Below are positions 1 through 11,278 of a DNA stretch of 11,801 bases, one piece after another. Below the pieces are notes generated by a model, which searched no databases, was not told the DNA's origin, and saw only the letters and a list, made by a program, of their open reading frames with translations. Made by a program: the position numbers and the translations under genes. This DNA comes from a virus. Each line of letters opens with the position of its first letter. The stretch's first letter is position 1. The stretch lies in the UHGV virus genome UHGV-0074586; one strand, 5' to 3'.

Positions 1-1
1 T

Positions 2-145
2 GAAAAAATGGGATTAGTAGGAATATCAGGTGACACTGCATTGAAGGCCACGAATAAAGCTGCCATGCGTCAGGCTCTGAAAGAAGCAATGGTTCCTATC
101 CCGGTATTTTATTGTGTAAATACCCGAGGTATTTATTTTTGGTGA
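2..145 (+). CDS. C-terminal fragment of a hypothetical protein whose ORF enters from beyond the left edge
   Basis: Frame is open from position 2 to a TGA at 143..145 (...MGLVGISGDTALKATNKAAMRQALKEAMVPIPVFYCVNTRGIYFW). No family recognised. An AT-rich hairpin plus T-run overlaps the last codons. Confidence 0.3.
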   Translation, partial: EKMGLVGISGDTALKATNKAAMRQALKEAMVPIPVFYCVNTRGIYFW

Positions 146-264
146 AATAATGATAAGCAAATGAATACAAAGGATATTTATTTTTTCGGTGTCTGCTTGT
201 TCAGTGCTTTTTATGCGGGATATGTGAAGTGGATCCCGATAGCTATTGCTGCCGGGATTATGGG

Positions 265-654
265 TTAGTCAGCGAAGGTTAAGACGAGAATTACCTTAAT
301 GATGTCTGCTACAACAGACACGGCCATAGATAAACCAAAGACAATCCAAGCCATAGAGATGTCTTCACTACCATCGTATAGAGTTCCGTAATCACTGGTG
401 TAAGGCGTAAATGTCGCGCCTTGATACAACAGGTATAAGCTTGAACCATAGAGGATAAATGCAGATATCCCTTGTATTGCTATGATCACTAGAATCATGA
501 AACGAGCTGATCTATGCGCCCAAGCCTGGCTTATTTTTTCTGATAGAGATTTCGCAATAAAAGCATGCGCTAAGCCGTAAATTGTCGAGATTGACAACAT
601 CCCAAAAAAGCTTGCTATAGCGGTTCCAACCATAATCGCCCCTTGCGTGATCAA
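265..654 (-). CDS. small multi-pass inner-membrane protein in the rexB position, immediately downstream of cI; candidate superinfection-exclusion or abortive-infection protein
   Basis: 129-aa ORF with about four hydrophobic helices. Its start overlaps the cI stop in an ATGA arrangement (651..654), implying co-translation with the repressor. Function inferred only from position and topology. Confidence 0.6.
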   Translation of the reverse strand: MITQGAIMVGTAIASFFGMLSISTIYGLAHAFIAKSLSEKISQAWAHRSARFMILVIIAIQGISAFILYGSSLYLLYQGATFTPYTSDYGTLYDGSEDISMAWIVFGLSMAVSVVADIIKVILVLTFAD

Positions 655-1362
655 ACCAGCCTTAGTTTTGTCTCAATTGCAACGCCTATAATCTTGCAGT
701 TTCCATTGATTGGCACGAGAGGCCATGCAGGATTAAGTCCCTTGAGGTATTTATTTCCGCCGTCGATTATCAGCTTCTTGAATGTTGCTTCGTTAGAGTC
801 AGAAAGTTTTGCTATGACCAAGCTGCCGTTGATCGCCTCCCTTCCGGTATCGAAAAGAACGAATGTTCCCTCTGGAATGCTTAACCCAACCGGTGCCGTC
901 ATTGAATCACCTTCCACTTTAAGCCAGAACGCATTACCTTGAATATGCGCGTCAGACTCAAGCCAAACATCTATGTCTTTAATGGTGTATGGTTCGCATG
1001 CTTCACACCACGAGCCAGCCTGGATACTGCTTAACACCGGATACCTCTTTCCTGCTCTGTATTCCCCTGCATACCTTACGTTGGCATCGCTCTTAAGGCT
1101 TTCTGCCTGTTCTGCAACCTTGGCAGCAATTGACTGGCTAAAATCAGCAATTGAGACTTGCAACAGTCGTGCAAAACCAGATGCAACCGTTTAGCGCGTT
1201 TCTGCCATTAAGATAATGCCCTACCGCTCCTTGGGTGATACCCAGTTCATCAGCGATTGAGTATTGGGTTATTCCCAATTCTTTCTTTTTTGACTCATAC
1301 AAAGCCTTAAGCCGCTTAGCGTCTTCGAGCTGTTCTGTCGTCAGTGATTTTTTATTTTCCAT
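651..1362 (-). pseudogene. cI: cI-like repressor (N-terminal HTH plus C-terminal S24/LexA-type autocleavage domain) interrupted by a frameshift near 1185..1191
   Basis: ORF 1144..1362 encodes an HTH domain resembling lambda cI ([26 protein letters not shown]...). ORF 651..1163 in another frame encodes the S24 domain (Ala-Gly site, GDSMTAP serine motif, FKKL lysine motif). Reading by hand, removing one C from the CC at about 1187..1188 restores a continuous ...[23 protein letters not shown]... protein. Confidence 0.75.
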
Positions 1363-1368
1363 AGCTTA

Positions 1369-1397
1369 ATTCTAATAGCTAAGGTACTTAAACTAAA
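1369..1397 (-). promoter_or_regulatory. PRM-like maintenance promoter for cI (leaderless transcript)
   Basis: On the minus strand a TAGAAT -10 hexamer (plus coords 1374..1369) lies 6 nt upstream of the cI ATG at 1362, as in lambda where the cI mRNA starts at the AUG. The -35 (about 1392..1397) is weak and abuts operator A, consistent with an activator-dependent promoter. Confidence 0.4.
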
Positions 1398-1438
1398 AAT
1401 ACCCTGAGTATTGATTGCTTTGAATACCTGTAGTATTC
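1398..1438. promoter_or_regulatory. two palindromic operator sites (OR2-like AATACcctgaGTATT at 1398..1412; OR1-like GAATACctgtaGTATTC at 1422..1438)
   Basis: Two near-perfect inverted repeats sharing the half-site AATAC/GTATT, centres about 25 bp apart, overlapping the -35 and -10 of the rightward promoter. A third site was not found. Confidence 0.6.
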
Positions 1439-1439
1439 T
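1411..1439 (+). promoter_or_regulatory. PR-like early rightward promoter (TTGATT, 17-bp spacer, TATTCT)
   Basis: -35 at 1411..1416 and -10 at 1434..1439 with 17-bp spacing, about 30 nt upstream of the cro start and overlapped by both operators. Confidence 0.5.
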
Positions 1440-1468
1440 TTGTTCATGGTTAATAACGGAGAGTGCAT

Positions 1469-1663
1469 ATGATTCGAATGACACTTGCCGATTACGCCAA
1501 AATCCATGGACAGGCTAAAGCAGCCAGTGACTTTGGTGTAATCCAGTGCGCTATCAGCAAGGCCATTCTGGCAGGCCGTAACATTATGGTTACGGTAAAG
1601 CCTGATGGCAGTGTGATTGGAGAGGAAGTTCGTCCTTTCCCAAGCAACAAGAAAAACAAATAG
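1469..1663 (+). CDS. cro: Cro repressor
   Basis: 64-aa product ([64 protein letters not shown]) is colinear with lambda Cro. GGAG at 1458..1461 is 7 nt upstream of ATG 1469; the ORF-track start at GTG 1463 is probably too early. Confidence 0.88.
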
Positions 1664-1669
1664 TAACAC

Positions 1670-1715
1670 CGCTCTTTAACAGTCATGGTCCTCATTCCCG
1701 CCGAAATGCGGGAAT
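1670..1715 (+). promoter_or_regulatory. nutR-like N-utilisation site: boxA (CGCTCTTTA, 1670..1678) and boxB-like hairpin (1694..1715)
   Basis: boxA matches the lambdoid consensus just after the cro stop. The hairpin has an 8-bp stem ATTCCCGC/GCGGGAAT and loop CGAAAT. Confidence 0.55.
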
Positions 1716-1720
1716 ACAAC

Positions 1721-1755
1721 GCGCATAAGTTGATGCGCATAACTTCTTATTTGTT
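1721..1755 (+). terminator. tR1-like element: perfect hairpin GCGCAT-aagttg-ATGCGC followed by a T-rich tract
   Basis: 6-bp perfect stem at 1721..1738 then ataacttcttatttgtt, sitting between nutR and cII as tR1 does in lambda. The T-tract is interrupted, so intrinsic strength is doubtful. Confidence 0.35.
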
Positions 1756-1771
1756 AAGGAAATACTTACAT

Positions 1772-2050
1772 ATGGAACTTACAAGTACTCGCAAGAAAGC
1801 GAATGCAATTACAAGCAACATCCTGAATCGAATTGCTGTACGTGGTCAGCGAAAGGTTGCCGACGCGTTAGGGATTAATGAATCGCAAATTTCGCGATGG
1901 AAAGACAGCTTCATCCCCAAAATGGGAATGCTTCTGGCTGTTCTTGAATGGGGTGTTGAAGACGAGGAGTTGGCGGAACTGGCTAAGAAAGTAGCCAAAA
2001 TGCTGACAAAAGAAAAAGCCCCGAAGAACGGCGAATTCTTCGAGGCCTGA
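1772..2050 (+). CDS. cII: CII transcriptional activator
   Basis: 92 aa with the ...SQISRWK...IPK...MLLAVLEWGV... core of lambda CII. The upstream ttaaggaaatacttacat-ATG matches the lambda cII initiation region as I recall it. The ORF-track start at 1685 would run through nutR and tR1 and is rejected. Confidence 0.85.
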   Translation: MELTSTRKKANAITSNILNRIAVRGQRKVADALGINESQISRWKDSFIPKMGMLLAVLEWGVEDEELAELAKKVAKMLTKEKAPKNGEFFEA

Positions 2051-2084
2051 TGTAGAAAGACTGGATCAATCCACAGGAGTAATT

Positions 2085-2246
2085 ATGACAAAACGTCGTA
2101 AGAAATACCAGGAAAAAGAAGAGATTCGACACCCTGATTCACCTGAGGGATTAGTGGTAGCCGCAGCAAATAACAGGGCGTTCGCAGAGCGCCTTGTTGG
2201 TGTTTACAGACTAGCAAAAGCAGGAGTGAAACATGGGCGTCGTTAA
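2085..2246 (+). CDS. small basic hypothetical protein (53 aa) between cII and the replication genes
   Basis: AGGAG at 2075..2079 is 5 nt upstream of ATG 2085. Product MTKRRKKYQEKEEIRHPDSPEGLVVAAANNRAFAERLVGVYRLAKAGVKHGRR. Overlaps the O-like start by 14 nt. Below the ORF-track size cutoff. Confidence 0.4.
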   Translation: MTKRRKKYQEKEEIRHPDSPEGLVVAAANNRAFAERLVGVYRLAKAGVKHGRR

Positions 2247-3123
2247 GTTAGCTGATTACAGGCATAACCCTGTACAACATCAGGAGGCATCCAGTATGGG
2301 GTATGTCTCTATACACCGCCAGTTTATGGACAGCAGGCTCTATAAGGACTCTCAGGCAGTACATCTTTGGCTTCACTTAATCCTCAAGGCTAATCACGAA
2401 TCTACTGTCGTCAATACGGATATCGGTCCGATAACTGTTGATCGCGGTCAGATGATAACTGGACGCCCGTCGCTGGTCAGAGAAACATTCATCCCCGACA
2501 ACAAAGTTCGGAGCTTATTACGGACTTTTGAGTCGAAAGGGATGCTTAATATTTGCTCGATGGGGAAGAAATTTAGCCTGTTTACAATCGTTAAATATGA
2601 CGATTTTCAGGCAAAAAATTGTCCAACGGTTGTCCAACGGTTGTCCAACGCAAACACCAGTAATGGCGAGGCTCTCAGCGGAGATTGTCCAACGGTTGTC
2701 CAACGGTTGTCCATAAACAATAATATAAATAATATCTCTAATACTGACGTATTAGAGAGTGCCACAGCAGACAAAAAGTCTGACAAGAAAAAACCTTCCG
2801 TTAGCTGTCAGGATGTTGTCGATGCTTACCACGAAATCCTTCCTGAAGCGCCAAGAATCCGCGCACTGAATGACAAGCGTAAAAACCAGATCCGAACGTT
2901 CTGGCGCAAAGCCGGAGTGATAACCCGCCAGCTTGACGGGCATGGGTTCACGATGCAGGACTGGAGAAATTATTTGAGCTACGTAGGCGAAAATTGCCGA
3001 TGGATGTTCGAAGAGCGTCCAAACCATCAACGCGGAACCGTCTGGCACAAAAAGGGATTTGATTTCCTGCTTAACGACAATACCTACCTGAAAGTTCGTG
3101 AGGGTGAACACGATGACCGATAA
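2233..3123 (+). CDS. O-like replication initiation protein (iteron-binding), origin embedded in the gene
   Basis: 296 aa. AGGAG at 2222..2226 precedes ATG 2233. Position after cII, internal iterons and translational coupling to a DnaB-type helicase indicate a lambda O / P22 gp18 analogue. Not sequence-similar to lambda O as far as I can recall. Confidence 0.7.
   Translation: MGVVKLADYRHNPVQHQEASSMGYVSIHRQFMDSRLYKDSQAVHLWLHLILKANHESTVVNTDIGPITVDRGQMITGRPSLVRETFIPDNKVRSLLRTFESKGMLNICSMGKKFSLFTIVKYDDFQAKNCPTVVQRLSNANTSNGEALSGDCPTVVQRLSINNNINNISNTDVLESATADKKSDKKKPSVSCQDVVDAYHEILPEAPRIRALNDKRKNQIRTFWRKAGVITRQLDGHGFTMQDWRNYLSYVGENCRWMFEERPNHQRGTVWHKKGFDFLLNDNTYLKVREGEHDDR
2619..2717. repeat. origin iterons: two clusters of three tandem 11-bp repeats TTGTCCAACGG (2619..2651 and 2685..2717)
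   Basis: Direct repeats with 11-bp periodicity, last copy of each cluster degenerate, clusters separated by about 33 bp, followed by an AT-rich stretch. They fall in the linker of the O-like protein (repeated translation PTVVQRLSN). Confidence 0.8.
2713..2760. promoter_or_regulatory. AT-rich DNA-unwinding-element-like tract flanking the iterons
   Basis: ataaacaataatataaataatatctctaatactgacgtattagagag is almost pure A/T directly 3' of the iterons, the classic lambdoid ori layout. Confidence 0.5.
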
Positions 3124-4549
3124 TTTTTATGCGCCGCCCCATAGCATCGAGGCAGAGCAGGCGGTGATTGGTGGATTGCTTCTGGATGATGACAGCAGTG
3201 AGCGCGTCCAGAAAGTTCTGGCGATGCTGAAGCCTGACTCATTTTACAGCCGGCCACACAAAATCCTTTTCGAAGAAATAACCAGAATGCACCGGGAGCA
3301 AAAGCCAGTAGATGGCCTGACGCTTTTCGATGAGCTGGAGCGTAAATCGTTAACGGCGTCTGTTGGCGGTTTTGCTTATATCGCTGAGATCGCAAAGAAC
3401 ACGCCAAGCGCAGCAAACATCGTTGCCTATGCAATGCAGGTTCGTGAAACCGCAATGGAACGCTACGCCATCAACCGCATGACTGAAGCGACGGAATTGC
3501 TCTATTCCCGCAACGGAATGACTGCAACACAGAAGTACGAAGCTATTCAGTCGATTTTCACGCAACTGACAGACCATGCAAAAACCGGATCGCGTCGCGG
3601 CCTTCGCTCATTTGGTGAGGTCATGGAAGACTGGGTTAGCGACCTTGAGAAGCGATTTGACCCGTCAGGCGAACAACGAGGAATGAGCACAGGGATCCCA
3701 TCGCTGGACAGGATGCTGTCACCGAAAGGTCTGGTGAAAGGCTCTCTGTTTGTCATTGGCGCTCGCCCTAAGATGGGGAAAACGACGCTATACAGCCAGA
3801 TGGCAATCAATTGCGCAGTGCATGAGAAAAAGCCAGCTCTGATGTTCAGCCTTGAAATGCCAGGTGACCAGATACTGGAAAAACTGGTAGGGCAGAAGTC
3901 TGGTGTTAACCCGAATATTTTTTACCTTCCGGCGACAAATGACGCCGATGACGGCTATCAGGGTGATTACGATGGCGACTTCAACAGGGCGATCGAAACA
4001 GCAAATCGCTTGAGTGAAATCGACCTGCTTTACATCGACGACACGCCGGGATTATCTCTGGCTCAAATCGTCAGCGAAAGCCGTCGAATCAAGCGAGAAA
4101 AAGGATGTGTTGGCATGATTCTGGTCGATTACCTGACACTAATGACCGCTGAGAAGGCCGATCGCAACGACCTTGCTTACGGCATGATCACCAAAGGACT
4201 GAAGAACCTTGCCAAAGAGCTTGATTGCGTTGTTGTGCTTCTGACACAGCTTAACCGCGCACTGGAAAGCCGAACCAATAAACGCCCATTACCAAGTGAC
4301 TCACGAGATACAGGGCAGATTGAACAGGATTGCGATTATTGGGTGGGGATCCATCGTGAAGGTGCTTTTGATGACAGCGTTCCTCCTGGTGAAACCGAAC
4401 TAATCCTTCGCCTCAATCGTCATGGCAATACCGGCACGGTGTATTGCATACAGGCAAATGGCGCTATTTATGACACAGACCAACAGTCTGCTGAAATGCG
4501 CCGCCGTGAACGCGAGGAACCGCAGTCCAAGAAGAAAGGAGGGTTCTGA
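3113..4549 (+). CDS. DnaB-family replicative helicase (P22 gp12-type)
   Basis: 478 aa with a DnaB N-terminal signature (HSIEAEQAVIGGLLLD), Walker A GARPKMGKT and a RecA-like C-terminal core. ATG 3113 overlaps the O-like stop (3121..3123); GAGGGTG lies upstream. The ORF-track GTG at 3098 is less likely. Confidence 0.9.
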   Translation: MTDNFYAPPHSIEAEQAVIGGLLLDDDSSERVQKVLAMLKPDSFYSRPHKILFEEITRMHREQKPVDGLTLFDELERKSLTASVGGFAYIAEIAKNTPSAANIVAYAMQVRETAMERYAINRMTEATELLYSRNGMTATQKYEAIQSIFTQLTDHAKTGSRRGLRSFGEVMEDWVSDLEKRFDPSGEQRGMSTGIPSLDRMLSPKGLVKGSLFVIGARPKMGKTTLYSQMAINCAVHEKKPALMFSLEMPGDQILEKLVGQKSGVNPNIFYLPATNDADDGYQGDYDGDFNRAIETANRLSEIDLLYIDDTPGLSLAQIVSESRRIKREKGCVGMILVDYLTLMTAEKADRNDLAYGMITKGLKNLAKELDCVVVLLTQLNRALESRTNKRPLPSDSRDTGQIEQDCDYWVGIHREGAFDDSVPPGETELILRLNRHGNTGTVYCIQANGAIYDTDQQSAEMRRREREEPQSKKKGGF

Positions 4550-4653
4550 TGACCATCTACATCACTGAGCTAATAGCAGGGTTATCGTTACTAATGGTTC
4601 TTACTGTATATATTATTAAGTATATTCTTTATGCGAATAAAAAAACTAATTGA
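4549..4653 (+). CDS. 34-aa hydrophobic single-pass peptide, translationally coupled to the helicase stop
   Basis: ATG 4549 overlaps the helicase TGA (4547..4549) with AGGAGG at 4538..4543. Product MTIYITELIAGLSLLMVLTVYIIKYILYANKKTN. Caveat: AT-rich DNA yields hydrophobic ORFs by chance. Confidence 0.3.
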   Translation: MTIYITELIAGLSLLMVLTVYIIKYILYANKKTN

Positions 4654-5242
4654 TCACGATGAGCTTCTGTCAACATTATCATATGACTCAGAAACAGGAA
4701 TATTTAAATGGCTAAAAACAAATTCAGTAGTAAGAGTAAAAGGTAGTATTGCTGGAGGTGTTAGTGGTGGTTATATATGCATTAGCATAAATAATGTTTT
4801 GTATTATGCGCATAGACTTGCTTGGTTCTATGTATACAAAAAATGGCCTCCTAAGTTTATTGATCATGTAAATGGGAACAGACTTGACAATAGGATTTCA
4901 AATCTAAGACTGGCAACAGAAGAGCAGAATGCAAGAAACATTGTAGGGAATAGGTTAAACACATCCGGTGCGATTGGAGTGTCTTGGTATAAGCCAACTG
5001 GCAGGTGGAAGTCTTATGTTGGTTATAAAAATAAGACAATATCGTTAGGGTATTTCGATAGCAAAGAAGATGCAGCATTCATAGCAGCACTAGCAAGAAA
5101 GAAACTATATGGAACTTATGCGAGTAAAGCACTTAATTGCGAGCATGAGCTTTTATCTCAATTTAATAATGATGAGGATAAACTTGCGGAATATCTTAAG
5201 GAAAAATCTAAAAGGACTCGAAAGCGTGTTAAAAAAAGATAA
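4631..5242 (+). CDS. HNH homing-type endonuclease with C-terminal AP2 DNA-binding domain
   Basis: HNH motif (YYAHRLAWF...IDHVNGNRLDNRISNLRLATEEQNARN) and AP2-like segment (GVSWYKPTGRWKSYVGYKNKTISLGYFDSKEDAAFIAA). The gene sits in a visibly AT-rich island unlike its neighbours. Confidence 0.85.
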   Translation: MRIKKLIDHDELLSTLSYDSETGIFKWLKTNSVVRVKGSIAGGVSGGYICISINNVLYYAHRLAWFYVYKKWPPKFIDHVNGNRLDNRISNLRLATEEQNARNIVGNRLNTSGAIGVSWYKPTGRWKSYVGYKNKTISLGYFDSKEDAAFIAALARKKLYGTYASKALNCEHELLSQFNNDEDKLAEYLKEKSKRTRKRVKKR

Positions 5243-5274
5243 AGGCCTGCTGGTAATCGCAGGCCTTTTTATTT
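5241..5274 (+). terminator. rho-independent terminator after the HNH gene
   Basis: Perfect 8-bp GC-rich stem AGGCCTGC/GCAGGCCT with an 8-nt loop, then TTTTTATTT. An A-run upstream makes it potentially bidirectional. Confidence 0.7.
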
Positions 5275-5290
5275 GGGGGAGAGGGAAGTC

Positions 5291-5731
5291 ATGAAAAAAC
5301 TAACCTTTGAAATTCGATCTCCGGCACATCAGCAAAACGCTATTCACGCAGTACAGCAAATCCTTCCAGACCCAACCAAGCCAATCGTAGTGATCATTCA
5401 GGAGCGCAACCGCAGCTTAGACCAGAATCGGAAGCTTTGGGCTTGCCTTGGTGACGTCTCTCGTCAGGTTGAATGGCATGGTCGCTGGCTGGATGCAGAA
5501 AGCTGGAAGTGCGTTTTTACAGCAGCATTAAAGCAGCAGGATGTTGTTCCTAACCTTGCCGGGAATGGCTTTGTGGTAATAGGCCAGTCAACCAGCAGGA
5601 TGCGTGTAAGCGAATTTGCGGAGCTATTAGAGCTTATACAGGCATTCGGTACAGAGCGTGGCGTTAAGTGGTCAGACGAAGCGCGACTGGCTCTGGAGTG
5701 GAAAGCGAGATGGGGAGACAGGGCGGCATGA
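5291..5731 (+). CDS. ninB: NinB (Orf-family recombination mediator)
   Basis: 146 aa from ATG 5291 ([34 protein letters not shown]...), essentially lambda NinB as I recall it. Confidence 0.9.
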
Positions 5732-5910
5732 GACGACAGCGACGAAGCATCACCGACATCATCTGTGAAAACTGCAAATACCTTCCAACGAAACGCTCCA
5801 GAAATAAACGCAAGCCAATCCCAAAAGAATCTGACGTAAAAACCTTCAACTACACGGCTCACCTGTGGGATATCCGGTGGCTTAGAGAACGTGCGAGGAA
5901 AACAAGGTGA
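5728..5910 (+). CDS. ninE: NinE
   Basis: 60 aa ([52 protein letters not shown]...). ATGA overlap with the ninB stop. Confidence 0.8.
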
Positions 5911-6077
5911 TTGACCCAAATCGAAGTTACGAACAAGAAAGCGTCGAGCGGGCTTTAACGTGCGCTAACTGCGGTCAGAAGCTGCATGTGCTGGAAGTTC
6001 ACGTGTGTGAGCACTGCTGCGCAGAACTGATGGGCGATCCGAATAGCTCAATGTACGAGGAAGAAGACGATGAGTGA
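5907..6077 (+). CDS. ninF: NinF (small CxxC...CxxC protein)
   Basis: GTG start overlapping the ninE stop (GTGA). 56 aa ([55 protein letters not shown]). Below the ORF-track cutoff. Confidence 0.7.
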
Positions 6078-6792
6078 GTTAATGAATGGCAATGCCATCA
6101 AAATGACAAGCATTGAAATCGCTGAGTTGGTGGGTAAGCGTCATGACAATGTGAAACGTACCATCGAAACGCTGGCTAAAAATGGTGTTATCCGGCTTCC
6201 TCAAATTGAGGTTTCCGAAAGAATCAATAACTTAGGGTTCAATGTTCAGTACGAGCATTACGTCTTCGAGGGCGAACAAGGTAAGCGAGACAGTATTGTC
6301 GTTGTTGCCCAGTTGTCGCCAGAGTTCACCGCTCGCCTTGTTGACCGCTGGCGAGAGCTTGAAGAAACTGCGGTTAATATCCCCAAAACGCTACCAGAAG
6401 CGTTGCGCCTTGCTGCTGATCTTGCTGAGCAGAAAATGCAACTGGAAAACCAGCTCGCAATTGCCGCACCTAAAGTTGAGTTTGCCGATCGCGTTGGCGA
6501 GGCCAGCGGAATTTTGATTGGAAACTTTGCAAAGGTTGTTGGTATTGGTCCAAACAAACTGTTTGCGTGGATGCGCGATCACAAAATCCTTATTGCTTCA
6601 GGTTCCCGGCGCAATGTGCCAATGCAGGAATATATGGATCGCGGCTATTTCACAGTGAAAGAAACAGCGGTCAACACAAATCACGGAATACAGATATCGT
6701 TCACCACAAAAATCACCGGGCGTGGTCAACAGTGGCTGACCAGAAAGTTGCTCGATAACGGAATGCTGAAAGTAACAGGGGAGGCTGCTTAA
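6070..6792 (+). CDS. Rha-family regulatory protein with KilA-C/ANT-type C-terminal domain (antirepressor-like)
   Basis: 240 aa. N-terminal segment (IKMTSIEIAELVGKRHDNVKRTIETL) resembles the Rha domain; C-terminal half (NFAKVVGIGPNKLFAWMRDHKIL...EYMDRGYFTVKE...TTKITGRGQQWL) resembles the antirepressor C-terminal domain. Assigned from memory. Confidence 0.65.
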   Translation: MSELMNGNAIKMTSIEIAELVGKRHDNVKRTIETLAKNGVIRLPQIEVSERINNLGFNVQYEHYVFEGEQGKRDSIVVVAQLSPEFTARLVDRWRELEETAVNIPKTLPEALRLAADLAEQKMQLENQLAIAAPKVEFADRVGEASGILIGNFAKVVGIGPNKLFAWMRDHKILIASGSRRNVPMQEYMDRGYFTVKETAVNTNHGIQISFTTKITGRGQQWLTRKLLDNGMLKVTGEAA

Positions 6793-7082
6793 TGGCTAAC
6801 CTACGCAAAGAAGCACGCGGCAGAGAATGCCAGGTACGTATTTACGGCGTATGCAATGGCAACCCTGAAACTACAGTTCTGGCACATTACCGGATGGCTG
6901 GAATTTGCGGAACGGGAATGAAGCCTGACGACCTGATCGGCGCATGGGCTTGTAGCGCGTGTCACGATGAAATCGACCGACGCACCCATAACCTCGACAA
7001 CAAAGACGCCAGACTTTACCACCTCGAAGGCGTAATCAGGACGCAGGCGATACTGCTGAAGGAGGGGAAGATTAAGCCATGA
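6792..7082 (+). CDS. small Cys/His-rich protein of the kind found upstream of rusA in lambdoid nin regions (DUF1364-like)
   Basis: 96 aa with a C-x8-C...H...C...CxxCH pattern. TAATG overlap with the upstream stop and ATGA overlap with rusA. Family name from memory. Confidence 0.55.
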   Translation: MANLRKEARGRECQVRIYGVCNGNPETTVLAHYRMAGICGTGMKPDDLIGAWACSACHDEIDRRTHNLDNKDARLYHLEGVIRTQAILLKEGKIKP

Positions 7083-7441
7083 ACGAATATCAGTTTGTGC
7101 TTCCATACCCACCGTCGCTGAACACCTACTGGCGAAGACGGGGAAGCCAATACTACATCAGCGATAAAGGCCAGAAATACCGAAAAGACGTTCAGCAAAT
7201 CATCCGCCAACTCAAGTTAGACATTTTCACCAAATCACGACTCCGCATCAAAGTCATCGCAGACGTTCCAGACTCCCGCCGCCGCGACCTCGATAACATC
7301 CTGAAAGGTTTACTCGATTCCCTTATCCACGCCGGATTTGCGGAAGACGACGAGCAATTCGATGACATTCGCGTAATTCGTGGTGTGAAAGTACCAGGCG
7401 GACGGCTTGGAATAAAAATCACCGAACTGGAGAACGCATGA
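7079..7441 (+). CDS. rusA: RusA-family Holliday junction resolvase
   Basis: 120 aa, colinear with E. coli RusA as I recall it, including the RRRDLDN catalytic motif and GGRLGIKITEL C-terminus. Confidence 0.88.
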   Translation: MNEYQFVLPYPPSLNTYWRRRGSQYYISDKGQKYRKDVQQIIRQLKLDIFTKSRLRIKVIADVPDSRRRDLDNILKGLLDSLIHAGFAEDDEQFDDIRVIRGVKVPGGRLGIKITELENA

Positions 7442-7626
7442 ACGCCACAATTCAAACGATACCAGAGCTTCTTATCCAGACACGAGGCAATCAGACCGAA
7501 GTGGCGAGGATGCTTTCCTGCGCAAGAGGAACAGTGCTCAAGTACAACCGAGACAGCAAAGGCGAGCTTCACGTAATAGTTAACGGCGTCCTGATGGTCA
7601 AACAGGGCAAGAGGGGAAGACGATGA
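7438..7626 (+). CDS. ninH: NinH
   Basis: 62 aa with the ...GNQTEVARMLSCARGTVLKY...VIVNGVLMV core matching lambda NinH. ATGA overlaps on both sides. Confidence 0.8.
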   Translation: MNATIQTIPELLIQTRGNQTEVARMLSCARGTVLKYNRDSKGELHVIVNGVLMVKQGKRGRR

Positions 7627-8111
7627 GCATAAGAGAACTAAACCTCACCAAAGAGCAGCACGAGTGGCTGAATGGCTGGCTTGAACTGTGGGGCGCATGG
7701 GTTTATTCAGGTCGTCTGGAAAAGCGCATGAGCAGCGTAATAGCGAAGTTCATGGAGAGCGTAGAGCCGGGAAGAGTTATGACAAGGCCAATGTGCAATG
7801 ATGATGATGGAATGTTGATTTCTCAGGTCGTCGATTCCGTCATGTACATTGACAAGAAAGCCTTTGGAATCCTCCTCAGCTACTACGCTCATGGCTCTTC
7901 CAAGCACGCCATTGCATCTTACTATCATCGCGTCGCAAGACCTCGCAAGATGTTATGCCGTGGCGGCGGGCGCATTCAAAAACCATCGCTCGCAACCTGT
8001 CGACGGGAAGTTGACGAAATCCTTAATGCCTCGTTGTTTATGATTTACCCGGTTCTGGATAGTGCGTTTAAAAACCGGAAACGTGTAGAGAAAATTAAAC
8101 ATGTAGCATAG
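7623..8111 (+). CDS. Q-like late-gene antiterminator (non-lambda Q type)
   Basis: 162 aa, last gene before the lysis region. WGAW...RPMCNDDDGMLIS...YYAHG motifs resemble the Q proteins of 933W/82-type phages, not lambda Q. Assigned from memory and position. Confidence 0.65.
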   Translation: MSIRELNLTKEQHEWLNGWLELWGAWVYSGRLEKRMSSVIAKFMESVEPGRVMTRPMCNDDDGMLISQVVDSVMYIDKKAFGILLSYYAHGSSKHAIASYYHRVARPRKMLCRGGGRIQKPSLATCRREVDEILNASLFMIYPVLDSAFKNRKRVEKIKHVA

Positions 8112-8117
8112 AACGTG

Positions 8118-8198
8118 TTGACATCATTGAGCAAATGAGCAACACTATTGGCATAAGCTGCCGTTAGTGACTCTTAAGTTGCAACGGTGGCTTTTTTT
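8118..8198 (+). promoter_or_regulatory. candidate late promoter (consensus -35 TTGACA at 8118..8123) followed by a hairpin plus T7 run (8157..8198)
   Basis: Perfect TTGACA 7 nt after the Q stop; no convincing -10. Stem GCTGCCGTT/AACGGTGGC (two G-U pairs, 17-nt loop) is followed by TTTTTTT ending 5 nt before tRNA 1. Confidence 0.3.
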
Positions 8199-8202
8199 AT
8201 TT

Positions 8203-8277
8203 GGGTCAGTCGTATAAAGGTCATTACTGAAGGCTGTTAACCTTCTTATCGTGGTTCGAGTCCACGCTGTCCCGCCA
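8203..8277 (+). tRNA. tRNA-Asn (anticodon GUU), phage-encoded
   Basis: Hand-folded cloverleaf: 7-bp acceptor stem with one T-T mismatch, perfect anticodon stem GAAGG/CCTTC with loop CTGTTAA, perfect T-arm CGTGG-TTCGAGT-CCACG, encoded CCA. The D-stem has only 3 pairs. Confidence 0.6.
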
Positions 8278-8282
8278 AATAT

Positions 8283-8358
8283 GCTGGTTTAGCTCCAATG
8301 GTAGAGCAGTCGCCTTGTAAGCGAATGGGTAGCGGTTCAAGTCCGTTAACCAGCACCA
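8283..8358 (+). tRNA. tRNA-Thr (anticodon UGU), phage-encoded
   Basis: Hand-folded cloverleaf: perfect acceptor stem GCTGGTT/AACCAGC, D-arm GCTC-CAATGGTA-GAGC, anticodon loop CTTGTAA, T-arm AGCGG-TTCAAGT-CCGTT, discriminator A and CCA. Confidence 0.7.
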
Positions 8359-8519
8359 TAACTGAGCCGTAGCCACTGGCTATCCTGAATTCATCAGTGA
8401 TAGTTATGCTGCGGCCTTCTACACATGACCTTCGTGAAAGCGGGTGGTTCAATTCTGCTGCCTTCTTCACGTTAAAAGAGGAATTAGGCTTCGAAAATGC
8501 AAAAACTTGCAAAAATGAC

Positions 8520-8548
8520 TTGAAAACGAGTTTTGAAACTGCATAATT
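8520..8548 (+). promoter_or_regulatory. sigma70-like promoter (TTGAAA, 16-bp spacer, CATAAT) preceded by phased A-tracts
   Basis: -35 at 8520..8525, -10 at 8542..8547 with a TG just upstream. The preceding 40 bp holds repeated TGCAAAAA/TTGAAAAC A-tracts at roughly helical phasing (8492..8526). Confidence 0.35.
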
Positions 8549-8630
8549 CCTATATGCTCGGACGTCAAAGGCGAAAGAGCTTACCCACCAGCGAAGATGC
8601 CTTGTGCGGAGCGGTGGGAAACACATTCAA

Positions 8631-8658
8631 GCCCTTGCAGAAATGCAGGGGCTTTTTT
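8631..8658 (+). terminator. strong rho-independent terminator in the leader upstream of the insertion operon
   Basis: 9-bp stem GCCCTTGCA/TGCAGGGGC (one G-U pair) with GAAA tetraloop, then TTTTTT. It lies 30 nt upstream of the first operon ATG and inside the ORF-track 5' extension that starts at TTG 8533. Confidence 0.7.
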
Positions 8659-8688
8659 ATTGGCTCAGTGCCACCAGGTGAACACCGT

Positions 8689-9240
8689 ATGCACACGGCG
8701 ATCATTTGCGCTTCCGGACCTTCCCTCACCCACGACGACTGCCAGAAAGCCATTGGCGCTGGATTACCCGTTATTGCGGTGAATTCTTCATGGCGCGCGG
8801 TGCCGGGATGCTCTCACATTTACGCGGGTGATCTGCGCTGGTGGGATGTGAACATTCCCGCGCTGCCCGATGGCCCCGAACGCTGGTCATGTAACCGGAG
8901 AGCACACACCCGATACGGCGTGAGCCTCTTCCCGACAGATACCAGCGGCACATTCAATTCGGGGCAGAGAGCAATCCTGTTCGCTCACTGGCTGGGTGCC
9001 AGTAGCATCATCCTGCTGGGCTTCGATTGCTCAATCTCAAACGGTAGTCACTGGCACGGCGATCACACAGTCCTCGATAACCCGACAGCAGCGAACGTAA
9101 AGCGCTGGCATGGCGAGTTTGCCCGGGTTGCGGCGCAGCTGCGTGGAAGCGTCAATATCATCAACAGCAGCCGCCAGACGGCGCTTAATTGCTTTCGTCG
9201 CTTACCTCTTGAAGCTGCGATCAGCGAGGTTACATGCTGA
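8689..9240 (+). CDS. hypothetical protein with Cst/GT42-like (DUF115/MptE-like) CMP-ulosonate transferase-fold signatures
   Basis: 183 aa from ATG 8689 (AGGTGA 7 nt upstream). IICASGPSL...PVIAVNSSW and FNSGQRAILFAHWLGASSIILLGFDCSISNGSHWHGDH parallel the GNGPSL, RCN, TSG...LGY...LSGIDFY and SHYIGH motifs of Campylobacter Cst-type sialyltransferases as I recall them. Fold-level inference only. Confidence 0.45.
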   Translation: MHTAIICASGPSLTHDDCQKAIGAGLPVIAVNSSWRAVPGCSHIYAGDLRWWDVNIPALPDGPERWSCNRRAHTRYGVSLFPTDTSGTFNSGQRAILFAHWLGASSIILLGFDCSISNGSHWHGDHTVLDNPTAANVKRWHGEFARVAAQLRGSVNIINSSRQTALNCFRRLPLEAAISEVTC

Positions 9241-10175
9241 ATCCTCCGATTTACATCGATGGCATGCTGGGAATGGGAGATACCATTTACCAGCGCGCTT
9301 TCGTCAAACAACTGCCTGCTGGGACATTCATTAAGACGGCATGGCCGGAGCTTTACGAAGATCTGCCGGTGAAAGTTGTCCGAAGTGACACCACGCTCAG
9401 AACGCAGCGTAAAAATGAGTTTCGCAGTTCGGCAAAGTTTTATCCGCCGCCATCGCCACGACAGACGAAGCGAATATTTTACGGACCGTATGATCTGCGG
9501 CGCGGTTCGATATTTGATGCGATGCGACGCCAGTTCGGCGTAACGCCAGCAGCGCTTGATTTGCCATCCTTTGGCCCGTCGCAGTTTACGCACCAAAAGC
9601 CGATCGCCGTTATCCGTCCGGCAACGGTTCGTTCTGAATGGCGTAGCGACTCCCGAAACCCTGACCCCGATTACCTCCTGCGCGCATCGAGAATCCTGCG
9701 GAAACATTTCTGCGTGATTAGCGTTGCTGATTTGCAGGACGGGGAAGAGTGGCTGGTGGGCGAAGAACCAGAGGCGGATCTGAAAATGCACGCTGGCGAG
9801 CTCAATATCAAAGAGCTGATGCGCCTGGTTGAGCATGCCGCTGTCGTGGTTACGCCTGTTGGCTGGGCGCTGCCCGCTGCCATTGCGTACAAAACACCTG
9901 TTTACGTTGTCGCTGGTGGGCGCGGTGGGCATAACGCTCCCGAGATAGTCACCGATCCGGCGATGGATTTATCCCGCGTTGGCTGGGCAATCCCGGACAA
10001 TTATTGTCGCTGCGAAGCGTGGGATCACCATTGCGACAAACGCATCTTCAACTTTGATTCAAAATTCGAGACATGGCTGAATGAAGTCGTTTTATCAGGA
10101 ACTGAACAGCGGGCTGGTATTCCTCCCGGAGCTGGGCATCGGTCGTTATCCGGTTCCGGCATCACGCCCGTATGA
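9234..10175 (+). CDS. hypothetical protein with glycosyltransferase family 9 (ADP-heptose:LPS heptosyltransferase)-like fold; 3' boundary uncertain
   Basis: ATG overlaps the upstream stop (ATGCTGA). N-terminal IYIDGMLGMGDTIYQRAFVKQL and C-terminal ELNIKELMRLVEHAAVVVTPVGWALPAAIAYKTPVYVVAGG follow the GT9 pattern, but the canonical DTGPMHLAAA motif is replaced by TPVGWALPAAIA. The ORF runs 95 nt into the next gene. Confidence 0.45.
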   Translation: MLNPPIYIDGMLGMGDTIYQRAFVKQLPAGTFIKTAWPELYEDLPVKVVRSDTTLRTQRKNEFRSSAKFYPPPSPRQTKRIFYGPYDLRRGSIFDAMRRQFGVTPAALDLPSFGPSQFTHQKPIAVIRPATVRSEWRSDSRNPDPDYLLRASRILRKHFCVISVADLQDGEEWLVGEEPEADLKMHAGELNIKELMRLVEHAAVVVTPVGWALPAAIAYKTPVYVVAGGRGGHNAPEIVTDPAMDLSRVGWAIPDNYCRCEAWDHHCDKRIFNFDSKFETWLNEVVLSGTEQRAGIPPGAGHRSLSGSGITPV

Positions 10176-10690
10176 CGAGCAGTATTTCGCGAAGTATCAG
10201 CAGCTTGCCGACACCGAAACGGGCAGAGCCTTAACGCAATCCCGTATTGAGCTGGTGGCGCGCCATTTTCACGGTCCTGTTCTCGACGTTGGTATCGGTG
10301 CCGGTCAGTTCGTCTCTACCCGACCGGGAACGCTTGGGTATGACGTTAATCCGGCTGGTATCGCCTGGCTGAACGAGCGGGGCGCATTCGCTGACCTCTA
10401 GTCAGGGGCGCGCGCTGACGATGTGGGATGTCCTGGAGCACATCGACGAGCCGGAGCTGGCGGTACAGCAGGCTACAGAGTTTGTTTTCGTGTCGATCCC
10501 CATTTTTACCGATGCCGGAGACATTCTTCGCTCGCACCATTTCAGGAAGAACGAGCACATCTGGTATTTCACTGACGACGGTATTAAGCGCTGGTTTGCA
10601 GAGCAGGGCTTCGAATGCGCTGAACAGAACACAATCGAATGCCAGTTAGGGCGTAAGGGCGTCGCTTCGTACGCTTTCCGCCGCGTTTAG
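10081..10690 (+). pseudogene. class I SAM-dependent methyltransferase split by a frameshift near 10395..10402
   Basis: ORF 10081..10401 carries motif I (VLDVGIGAGQF) and an acidic beta-2 end (GYDVNP). ORF 10421..10690 in another frame carries the DVLEH motif. The frame upstream of 10421 reads ...SSQGRALTMWDVLEH, so one indel just before the TAG at 10399..10401 would restore a single protein of about 200 aa. Confidence 0.6.
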
Positions 10691-10764
10691 TCCCCTCTTA
10701 GCCCATTGCATTTGGGTTTATTCCAGTTTCGCACACATCACCCGCAAACAGGCGAGGTCAACCT

Positions 10765-10923
10765 ATGAATAGCTCTCACGGGATTTTTGAACAAACCATG
10801 AAATGGATCGCGCTATATCTGCCGTCAGTTTACGCCGGGTTATGCGCTCTGGGCATCTCAGCGCTTATCGACATACGCGCAGGGAAGCCGAAACTCTACA
10901 CCGCCACTGGCGCGCTAAATTAA
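10765..10923 (+). CDS. 52-aa small membrane protein immediately upstream of the holin gene
   Basis: GAGGT at 10754..10758 is 6 nt upstream of ATG 10765. Product MNSSHGIFEQTMKWIALYLPSVYAGLCALGISALIDIRAGKPKLYTATGALN has one predicted TM helix. Its stop coincides with the point where lambda-like sequence resumes. Confidence 0.45.
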   Translation: MNSSHGIFEQTMKWIALYLPSVYAGLCALGISALIDIRAGKPKLYTATGALN

Positions 10924-10954
10924 ATAGAGCAAATCCCCTTATTGTGGGTAAGAC

Positions 10955-11278
10955 ATGAAGATGCCAGAAAAACATGACCTGTTAGCCGCCATTCTCGCGG
11001 CAAAGGAACAAGGCATCGGGGCAATCCTTGCGTTTGCAATGGCGTACCTTCGCGGCAGATATAATGGCGGTGCGTTTACAAAAACAGTAATCGACGCAAC
11101 GATGTGCGCCATTATCGCCTGGTTCATTCGTGACCTTCTCGACTTCGCCGGACTAAGTAGCAATCTCGCTTATATAACGAGCGTGTTCATCGGCTACATC
11201 GGTACTGACTCGATTGGTTCGCTTATCAAACGCTTCGCTGCTAAAAAAGCCGGAGTAGAAGATGGTGGAAATCAATAA
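10955..11278 (+). CDS. S: holin S (S107/S105 dual-start class I holin)
   Basis: 107 aa, essentially lambda S as I recall it. Met1-Lys2-Met3 dual-start motif at 10955..10963 and a CCCC...GGG stem upstream. Confidence 0.95.

Follow-up and report, generated by a model that had tools for sequence, protein, structure and literature searches.

Two tandem tRNA genes, for tRNA-Asn and tRNA-Thr, lie directly behind the late terminator in the 11.8 kb stretch of viral DNA analysed here (hereafter, the window). In all likelihood both genes are functional. They form a standard late-leader cassette of the phage 21 type, probably gated by the antiterminator Q, in which the tRNA-Thr would resist the nuclease P2-OLD.

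ARAGORN called exactly two tRNA genes in the window, both on the + strand. The first, tRNA-Asn with anticodon GUU, occupies positions 8203..8277 (75 nt). The second, tRNA-Thr with anticodon UGU, occupies positions 8283..8358 (76 nt). Each gene encodes its own CCA end, and the 5 nt spacer between them, at 8278-8282, reads AATAT. With the Rfam model RF00005, tRNA-Asn scores 53.4 bits (E=2e-9) and tRNA-Thr scores 61.5 bits (E=1e-11). The minimum free energy fold of each RNA is a cloverleaf. A preliminary description, prepared from the DNA sequence, had reported two phage-borne tRNA genes (Asn-GUU and Thr-UGU) that fold into cloverleaves, encode CCA and are 5 nt apart. Coordinates and anticodons agree with those from ARAGORN, the folds agree with our own, and covariance scoring, proposed there as a check, places both genes well above the Rfam gathering score of 29. 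A permissive Rfam search of positions 8100-8800 found no RNA above threshold besides the two tRNAs. Note that two sRNA matches at 8582-8660 scored 17.7-19.2 bits, against gathering scores of about 50, and were taken as chance.

The late-control module upstream of the tRNA genes

Upstream of the tRNA genes, on the + strand, is a gene for a 162 aa antiterminator Q of the phage 21 type (7623..8111). The protein matches phrog_943 over its full length (E=3e-90) and PF06530, Phage_antitermQ (E=9e-25). At the DNA level, the gene is 97.8% identical to its phage 21 counterpart, which is annotated 'antiterminator'. Over positions 7608-8420 as a whole, identity with phage 21 is also 97.8%. In that phage (OL657228.1; PMC9119081; for the terminator, PMID 1704887) Q, the late promoter pR', the Q-binding element, the pause element, the terminator tR', tRNA-Asn and tRNA-Thr occur in the order, and with the spacing, found in the window. 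Coordinates of the control elements were transferred from record OL657228.1, with an offset of 4607 between the phage 21 locus and the window.

All of the transferred elements are on the + strand. Promoter pR' maps to 8118..8146, with a -35 element (TTGACA, 8118-8123) of the same sequence as in phage 21 and, by the phage 21 annotation, a -10 element at 8141-8146. The Q-binding element, ATTGAGCA/AATGAGCA, at 8126-8141, is identical to that annotated in phage 21. Similarly, transcription is annotated to start at 8153, and the sigma-dependent pause element TAAGCTG, at +2 (8154-8160), is identical in the two phages. The transferred tR' annotation spans 8155-8202; in Sf6, a terminator and a qut region are annotated. 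The late leader is 50 nt long (8153..8202) and consists of the start, the pause element, the tR' hairpin and a run of seven T residues. We folded the RNA from 8153 to 8202. The hairpin, at 8155-8193, has 17 base pairs and is bulged, with a free energy of -20.2 kcal/mol (z = -6.1); none of 200 shuffled sequences was equally stable. The T-run follows at 8192-8198, and tRNA-Asn starts 4 nt past it. Hence, both signals noted in the preliminary description, a consensus TTGACA at 8118..8123 and a hairpin with T7 adjoining the first tRNA downstream of Q, are present and correspond to pR' and tR' of phage 21. Judged by sequence, the Q/pR'/tR' module of the window is of the phage 21 type, with the predicted function of each element following the annotation.

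Elsewhere, the two phages differ. Within the cassette, the window has G26->U in tRNA-Asn (position 8228) and a C->T change in the spacer. Phage 21 encodes a pinholin and a SAR endolysin, whereas the window has lambda-type S and R together with a 2.47-kb insertion. The early region of the window is of the mEpX2/HK620 type, unlike that of phage 21.

Distribution, boundaries and conservation of the cassette

The arrangement is not confined to phage 21. In Sf6, the annotated Q gene, terminator and tRNA pair match the layout of the window. More widely, the pair lies directly behind a Q21-like gene and tR' hairpin in Sf6, SfI, BTP1, SPN9CC and other P22-like or lambdoid phages, with tRNAs that are 98-99% identical. 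Other parts of these genomes are less uniform. Virion modules differ, and in the Sf6/L group the promoter, the Q-binding element (AATTAGCC/ATTTAGCC) and the Q C-terminus have all diverged. Among 5,426 complete E. coli genomes, 369 contain the 156-nt tRNA pair, labelled tRNA-Asn and tRNA-Thr by the NCBI pipeline, and 60 phage records match it at a coverage of at least 80%. Neither of these BLAST collections, of E. coli genomes and of phage records, contains an identical 156-nt copy; the best match is 99.4%. The pair also features in the literature. The SfI paper (PMC3636060) describes two tandem tRNA genes downstream of Q, one or both of which are also in Sf6, ST64T, PS3 and p21. Further accounts concern P22-like prophages (in the epsilon34 paper, PMC2629481) and phage L (PMC8022706), and the announcement of the phage 21 genome gives the number of tRNA genes as 2 (PMC9119081). 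We conclude that the tRNA-Asn/tRNA-Thr cassette is an already known feature of many E. coli, Shigella and Salmonella prophages.

Two other phage systems bear comparison. In P1, adjacent genes for tRNA-Asn(GUU) and tRNA-Thr(UGU) have the same order as in the window and are 2 nt apart. However, these are only distantly related in sequence to the window pair, and their setting differs: in place of a Q-type terminator, the ban promoters, which C1 controls, lie upstream of them. Lambdoid Stx-converting phages also open their late transcript with a small tRNA cluster, which lies past the late terminator and ahead of the first late genes, and which presumably supplies tRNAs for rare codons. In phages such as 933W this cluster is ileZ-argN-argO, downstream of Q/pR'/tR'. 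In contrast to the window tRNAs, these are Ile and Arg isoacceptors, associated with another type of Q and unrelated in sequence. A tRNA gene near the stx2 operon, ileX, is cited in the SfI paper (PMC3636060).

Contigs in IMG/VR allow the boundaries of the cassette to be placed. A pattern scan returned 120 loci, 94 of which are close copies of tRNA-Asn. In every one of the 94, a hairpin and T-run end 3-4 nt upstream. The hairpin is of the 21-type tR' in 77 of the 94 copies (exact in 68/94), and all 77 have a Q21-like gene upstream. The end of this gene is 93-97 nt from the tRNA in 69/77 and 794 nt in 5/77. The other hairpin, CCCGAAAC...GTTTCGGGATTTTTT, precedes 17 of the 94 copies and is the lambda 6S/tR' terminator. 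Here, the upstream gene is a 207-aa ORF beginning MRLESVAKFHSPKSP, with no similarity to Q21, which is presumably lambda Q. Hence, in some contigs, the cassette stands behind a Q/tR' of the lambda type, which is a modest new point. In both classes, the junction consists of the T-run TTTTTT(T)ATTT and then GGGTCAG. On the right, positions 8360..8447 (+ strand) are 93% identical over 88 nt to lambda 44945-45032 (blastn), a non-coding stretch between lambda tR' and S. This match defines the right boundary of the cassette relative to lambda. Taken together with the tR' junction on the left, it indicates that the Asn-Thr unit replaces the lambda segment between tR' and that point. Downstream of tRNA-Thr the window continues with lambda-like leader sequence, followed by the lysis genes.

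Conservation is greatest within these boundaries. Among IMG/VR relatives, mean identity to the window is 95.2% for the leader and 96.5% for tRNA-Thr, neither of which was constrained by the search pattern. The equivalent value for tRNA-Asn, 98.4%, is inflated because relatives were chosen on the tRNA-Asn sequence. The flanks are less conserved: the 3' end of Q has a value of 83%, and the downstream side one of 91%. We also aligned five phages: the window, 21, Sf6, L and JLK-2012. From TAAGCTG to the tRNA these are identical save one T of the T-run, an extra residue that the window and phage 21 share. Continuing the comparison through tRNA-Asn adds a single difference, at position 26 of the tRNA. 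The promoter and downstream flanks of the same phages have diverged.

These comparisons bear on the state of tRNA-Asn, for which the preliminary description noted a mismatched acceptor pair and a 3-bp D-stem, and raised the prospect of decay or an unusual identity. The irregularities are real. The cmscan alignment marks two pairs as non-canonical, one within the acceptor stem (U4·U69) and one that closes the D stem (U13·U22). The interpretation does not follow, since both mismatches are fixed in a conserved family. Thus, U13·U22 is present in 94/94 of the IMG/VR copies and U4·U69 in 89/94. The remaining five have U·C (3), U·G (1) or G·U (1) and, given the latter two variants, the 4:69 pair is apparently just tolerant. 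All other stem pairs are essentially invariant among the 94 copies, and so carry no covariation signal. The nucleotides U8, A14, A15/U48, G18G19, U33, G53-C61, the T-loop UUCGAGU, T54-psi55-C56 and A58 are in place, as are anticodon GUU, discriminator G73 and CCA. We take the AsnRS identity set to be GUU and G73. Apart from position 26, tRNA-Asn is the same in phage 21, Sf6, L and JLK-2012, despite the diverged flanks. A decaying or non-functional gene, or one of switched identity, could still be argued from the two non-canonical pairs, from an Rfam score below that of tRNA-Thr, from the lack of a codon-usage rationale (below) and from the window-private G26->U at 8228, where all 94 relatives have G26. 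Set against the conservation of the family and its intact tertiary and identity nucleotides, we regard this as highly improbable. A pseudo tRNA was rejected on the same grounds: conservation, intact identity and tertiary nucleotides, and mismatches that are fixed.

Turning to tRNA-Thr, all 76 of its 76 nucleotides are identical in phage 21, where the molecule is known as tRNA-Thr21, and in Sf6. Two oddities, absent from the preliminary description, are C14 and a G27·A43 mismatch. The mismatch is in the anticodon stem, next to a U28-A42 pair. Position 14 is near-universally A in tRNAs; across 84 relatives of the window tRNA-Thr it is C in 81/84 and T in 3/84. Other conserved tertiary and loop nucleotides are present. 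Compensatory changes occur in two stems. In 5 IMG/VR contigs G5-C68 is replaced by U5-A68 and, in 1 relative, A49-U65 is replaced by G-C; G·U intermediates are also present. Such changes suggest that selection keeps the tRNA-Thr stems paired. The molecule carries G1-C72, C2-G71, G35, U36 and A73, the identity set for E. coli ThrRS. In addition, phage tRNA-Thr(UGU) is reported to restore the decoding of ACA (PMC12445682), which implies that tRNAs of this class are charged.

Expression of the tRNA genes

In a lysogen, transcripts from pR' would stop at tR', leaving the tRNAs essentially silent. On induction, Q21 would engage RNA polymerase during its halt at the sigma-dependent pause element, and read-through of tR' would then occur. 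The late transcript would yield the tRNAs before any other product. RNase P would be expected to cut at 8202/8203 and 8282/8283, with 3' exonucleases trimming back to the encoded CCA. Since the two signals upstream match those annotated as pR' and tR' in phage 21, Q-dependent read-through of tR', and excision of the tRNAs from the late transcript, is the natural reading, which we infer from position. Note that the cassette is always joined to a late terminator, whatever the type of Q. This supports Q-gated expression as part of the design, and is the best circumstantial argument for the read-through suggested in the preliminary description. The phage L paper (PMC8022706) left undecided whether expression is by excision from the late mRNA or from an unidentified promoter. 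Our sigma-70 scan of positions 7600-11000 found no site between Q and the tRNAs, although the scan is insensitive and misses pR' itself, which has a weak -10 element. An independent tRNA promoter was rejected; there is no scan match between Q and the tRNAs, and only 4 nt lie between the T-run and the first tRNA.

It could instead be supposed that the tRNAs are made in the lysogen, due to a leaky tR' or an unrecognised promoter, and constitute a lysogenic-conversion trait. Any terminator lets some transcripts through, prophages often carry the cassette, as judged from its frequency in E. coli genomes, and PMC7547250 describes pR' of Stx phages as always active, with termination immediately downstream in lysogeny. 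However, the tR' hairpin is strong and is backed by a U7 tract, just 4 nt from the tRNA, and no sigma-70-like site other than pR' was apparent upstream. Furthermore, the cassette adjoins the late terminator with either type of Q. Expression in the lysogen is consequently, in our view, unlikely, and we favour Q-dependent read-through.

Proposed roles in codon supply and in resistance to the OLD nuclease

Why might a phage carry these tRNAs? One answer is that they top up the host pool for codons favoured by the phage, namely ACA and, in abundant late proteins, those for Asn, and have no role in defence. The preliminary description had proposed looking for enrichment of ACA and of AAC/AAU codons. 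For ACA, enrichment is evident. In the late genes of phage 21, 18.7% of Thr codons are ACA; the share is 11.0% for 38 K-12 genes (p=3e-4), and for the late genes of lambda it is 11.4% (p=0.003). Note that the K-12 baseline of 38 CDS, or 14,057 codons, is from one 49-kb region. Within the window, the ACA share is 34% for the early, nin and Q ORFs and 30% for ORFs of the insertion. For Asn, enrichment was not found: phage 21 late genes have 37.7 Asn codons per 1000, against 35.4, and AAC makes up less of their Asn total than it does in the host genes sampled. Similarly, Asn enrichment is absent from the insertion and lysis genes of the window.

The usage of ACA speaks for codon compensation. Relative to K-12 and lambda, it is about 1.8 times as high in the late genes of phage 21, and for the ORFs of the window itself the factor is about 3. 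The SfI paper (PMC3636060) similarly gives 17.3% versus 7.1% for ACA, with no explanation for tRNA-Asn, and in the capsid gene of phage L 24/25 Asn codons are AAC (PMC8022706). Set against this, Asn codons are not enriched in the late genes of phage 21, whose major capsid gene has AAT for 9/11 Asn codons and ACA only once. Moreover, lambda expresses largely homologous late genes, according to BLASTp similarities to lambda in the phage 21 record, without any tRNA. Finally, the stem changes of tRNA-Thr21 are those that confer OLD resistance experimentally, which supplementation alone does not explain. Hence, compensation as the sole role is a possibility that we rate well below even. Codon compensation and defence evasion are not mutually exclusive.

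The resistance in question has been described in a recent study (PMC12445682, NAR 2025). P2-OLD, the effector of P2-lambda interference, is lethal to lambda-infected cells because it cleaves host tRNA-ThrU, which in E. coli is the sole tRNA with a UGU anticodon and the sole decoder of ACA. The cuts fall after C28 and C40, where the anticodon stem carries a paired CNG motif. Cells are rescued by phage tRNA-Thr(UGU) species, which stand in for the degraded host molecule. In particular, tRNA-Thr21 of phage 21 gave partial protection from P2-OLD when expressed from a plasmid. Its resistance is ascribed to C28U/G42A together with a shortened anticodon stem; C28U/G42A alone, in ThrU, gave no protection. 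We found no statement in the paper on whether phage 21-type phages escape P2 interference.

The tRNA-Thr of the window has the sequence of tRNA-Thr21, including U28-A42 and G27·A43. Thus, at positions 28-30/40-42 it reads UCG/CGA, and 27:43 is mismatched, while host thrU has CUG/CAG and a stem of 5 bp. The copy in the published assays was on a plasmid; that in the window sits behind its native, predicted Q-gated leader. The best-supported reading is that tRNA-Thr is a nuclease-resistant ACA decoder, probably delivered at the start of late transcription. It would keep ACA decoding available during late protein synthesis. It would also add capacity for ACA, which these phages overuse compared to the host. 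The tRNA-Thr of P1 differs from that of the window, in that both CNG motifs and a 5-bp stem are retained.

A variant of the cassette provides a further hint. JLK-2012 and nine IMG/VR contigs have a chimeric second tRNA, in which the 3' half is that of host thrU. In JLK-2012 and 8 of the 9 contigs, the chimera has G42U/U43C, so that the CNG motif of the 3' strand is destroyed and pairs 27:43 and 28:42 are lost. The thrU-derived chimera therefore seems to have reached both published resistance factors independently. We also considered mutations of the anticodon loop as a signature of nuclease escape, an idea in PMC10264068. This was set aside; both phage tRNAs share their 7-nt loops with host asnT and thrU, and the differences are in the stems.

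The tRNA-Asn, for which codon usage offers no rationale, may have a parallel role. Host asnT has CGG/CCG at positions 28-30/40-42, and A37. The tRNA-Asn of the window has AAG/CUU at the same positions, and A37. Loss of the CNG motif from phage tRNA-Asn is a modest new point. P1 tRNA-Asn also lacks the motif. In PMC12445682, host tRNA-Asn(GUU) is one of three comparison tRNAs in the cleavage kinetics, and tRNA-Asn of phage 21 is not discussed. Our own suggestion is that tRNA-Asn is plausibly a second nuclease-resistant spare, which would explain its retention without codon bias. Extending this, the Asn-Thr pair could be a two-tRNA counter-defence cassette, mobile between 21-type and lambda-type Q/tR' and switched on with the late genes, rather than a codon aid. 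We offer this larger proposal tentatively, and consider it doubtful. Some observations run counter to tRNA-Asn as a resistant spare. Its anticodon stem is not shortened, with five standard pairs from 27:43 to 31:39, and in ThrU a CNG change by itself was insufficient (PMC12445682). Against a two-tRNA role directed at OLD is the P1 tRNA-Thr, with its CNG motifs intact.

As a finding, the tRNA pair adds nothing new, being annotated in the phage 21, Sf6 and SfI records and in hundreds of E. coli genomes. Rather, it is a correctly read landmark, which marks the late-control module of this mosaic prophage as being of the phage 21 type and assigns the neighbouring 2.47-kb insertion to the late transcript under Q control. 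If confirmed, loss of the motif from tRNA-Asn, the cassettes behind lambda Q and the thrU chimera would support defence evasion as the reason that temperate coliphages keep the pair.

Unusual tRNA positions and variant second tRNAs

The tRNA-Asn(GUU) gene of the window (8203-8277) has T at position 26 (window 8228), whereas phages 21, Sf6, L and JLK-2012 have G. The same G26 is found in all 94 close copies of this tRNA from IMG/VR, leaving the window alone with T. As a result of the T at 8228, the G26·U44 junction pair becomes U·U. Either a mutation private to this copy or an error in sequencing could account for this base. The tRNA-Thr(UGU) gene (8283-8358) also has an atypical base, C at position 14 (window 8296); A14, which partners U8, is almost universal among tRNAs. 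Of 84 relatives, 81 have C14 and the remaining three have T. By contrast, both the host gene thrU and the tRNA-Thr of phage P1 have A14.

In some related phages the second tRNA is different. A chimeric gene, with a 5' half of phage 21 type and a 3' half of host thrU, occurs in phage JLK-2012 (L005:1281-1356) and in nine IMG/VR contigs. The chimera of JLK-2012, and those of eight of the nine contigs, carry the changes G42U and U43C. These break two anticodon-stem pairs and one CNG motif, the paired anticodon-stem motif that P2-OLD cuts in host tRNA-ThrU. ARAGORN made no call for the JLK-2012 chimera, which is followed, as in P1, by an extra tRNA-Gly and tciA/tciB. At the place of tRNA-Thr, phage L (ST64T type) has a 72-nucleotide tRNA-like gene (L004:1281-1352). 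Its acceptor stem is of the Thr type and its anticodon arm is different. The gene is annotated as tRNA-Leu(TAA), despite having no long variable arm, and was not called by ARAGORN.

The Asn(GUU)-Thr(UGU) pair recurs in unrelated temperate coliphages. In P1 (L006:1425-1578), tRNA-Asn(GUU) precedes tRNA-Thr(UGU), as it does in the window, with 2 nucleotides between them. Note that the sequences of both P1 tRNAs are only distantly related to those of the window.

A 2.47-kb insertion downstream of the cassette

Between a lambda-like leader and the holin gene S lies a 2.47-kb insertion (8448-10917), in the place of lambda 45033-45148. Stx phages carry stx at the same position. The insertion is within the predicted Q-controlled late transcript, and its GC content is 54.7%, compared with 46.5% for window positions 1-8100. 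It has three genes. These encode an MptE-like/DUF115 protein (phrog_4603, annotated 'alpha-2,3-sialyltransferase'), a protein of unknown function (phrog_6804) and a class I methyltransferase (phrog_6564; 10081-10690). The same block, 99.5% identical, is present in E. coli I3. There, the block follows an antitermination gene as long as lambda Q (624 nucleotides), and the two tRNAs are absent.

In E. coli I3, the methyltransferase gene is intact and encodes 204 amino acids. Relative to this reference, the window has a 5-bp deletion (ACGCC), which splits the reading frame after 10399 into two ORFs (10081-10401 and 10421-10690). The copy in this element is likely to be a pseudogene.

The left end of the insertion (8520-8662) is non-coding. 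It contains a good sigma-70-like site (TTGAAA-16-CATAAT, 8520-8547) and, about 80 nucleotides beyond, an 11-bp GC-rich hairpin with a T-run (8629-8662). These elements precede the first gene of the insertion, which probably starts at ATG 8689, judging by the E. coli I3 annotation. The region could specify a small transcript of about 110 nucleotides, or an attenuated leader. The arrangement is kept in E. coli I3; Rfam searches of this region gave only sub-threshold matches.

The cassette behind other late-control regions

In five IMG/VR loci of the 21 type, the Q21-like gene ends about 794 nucleotides before tRNA-Asn, rather than the usual 95 or so. In these contigs, the sequence immediately preceding the pause element and hairpin has neither TTGACA nor the Q-binding element. 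This suggests an insertion or replacement of about 700 bp at the promoter.

In 17 further IMG/VR loci (L014, L015, L021, L025, L032 and 12 others) the Asn-Thr cassette directly follows a 207-amino-acid ORF, which we take to be lambda Q, and the lambda 6S/tR' terminator. Here, the cassette junction falls inside the terminator T-run. Since it also occurs behind a lambda-type Q and 6S/tR', the Asn-Thr cassette is not tied to Q21.
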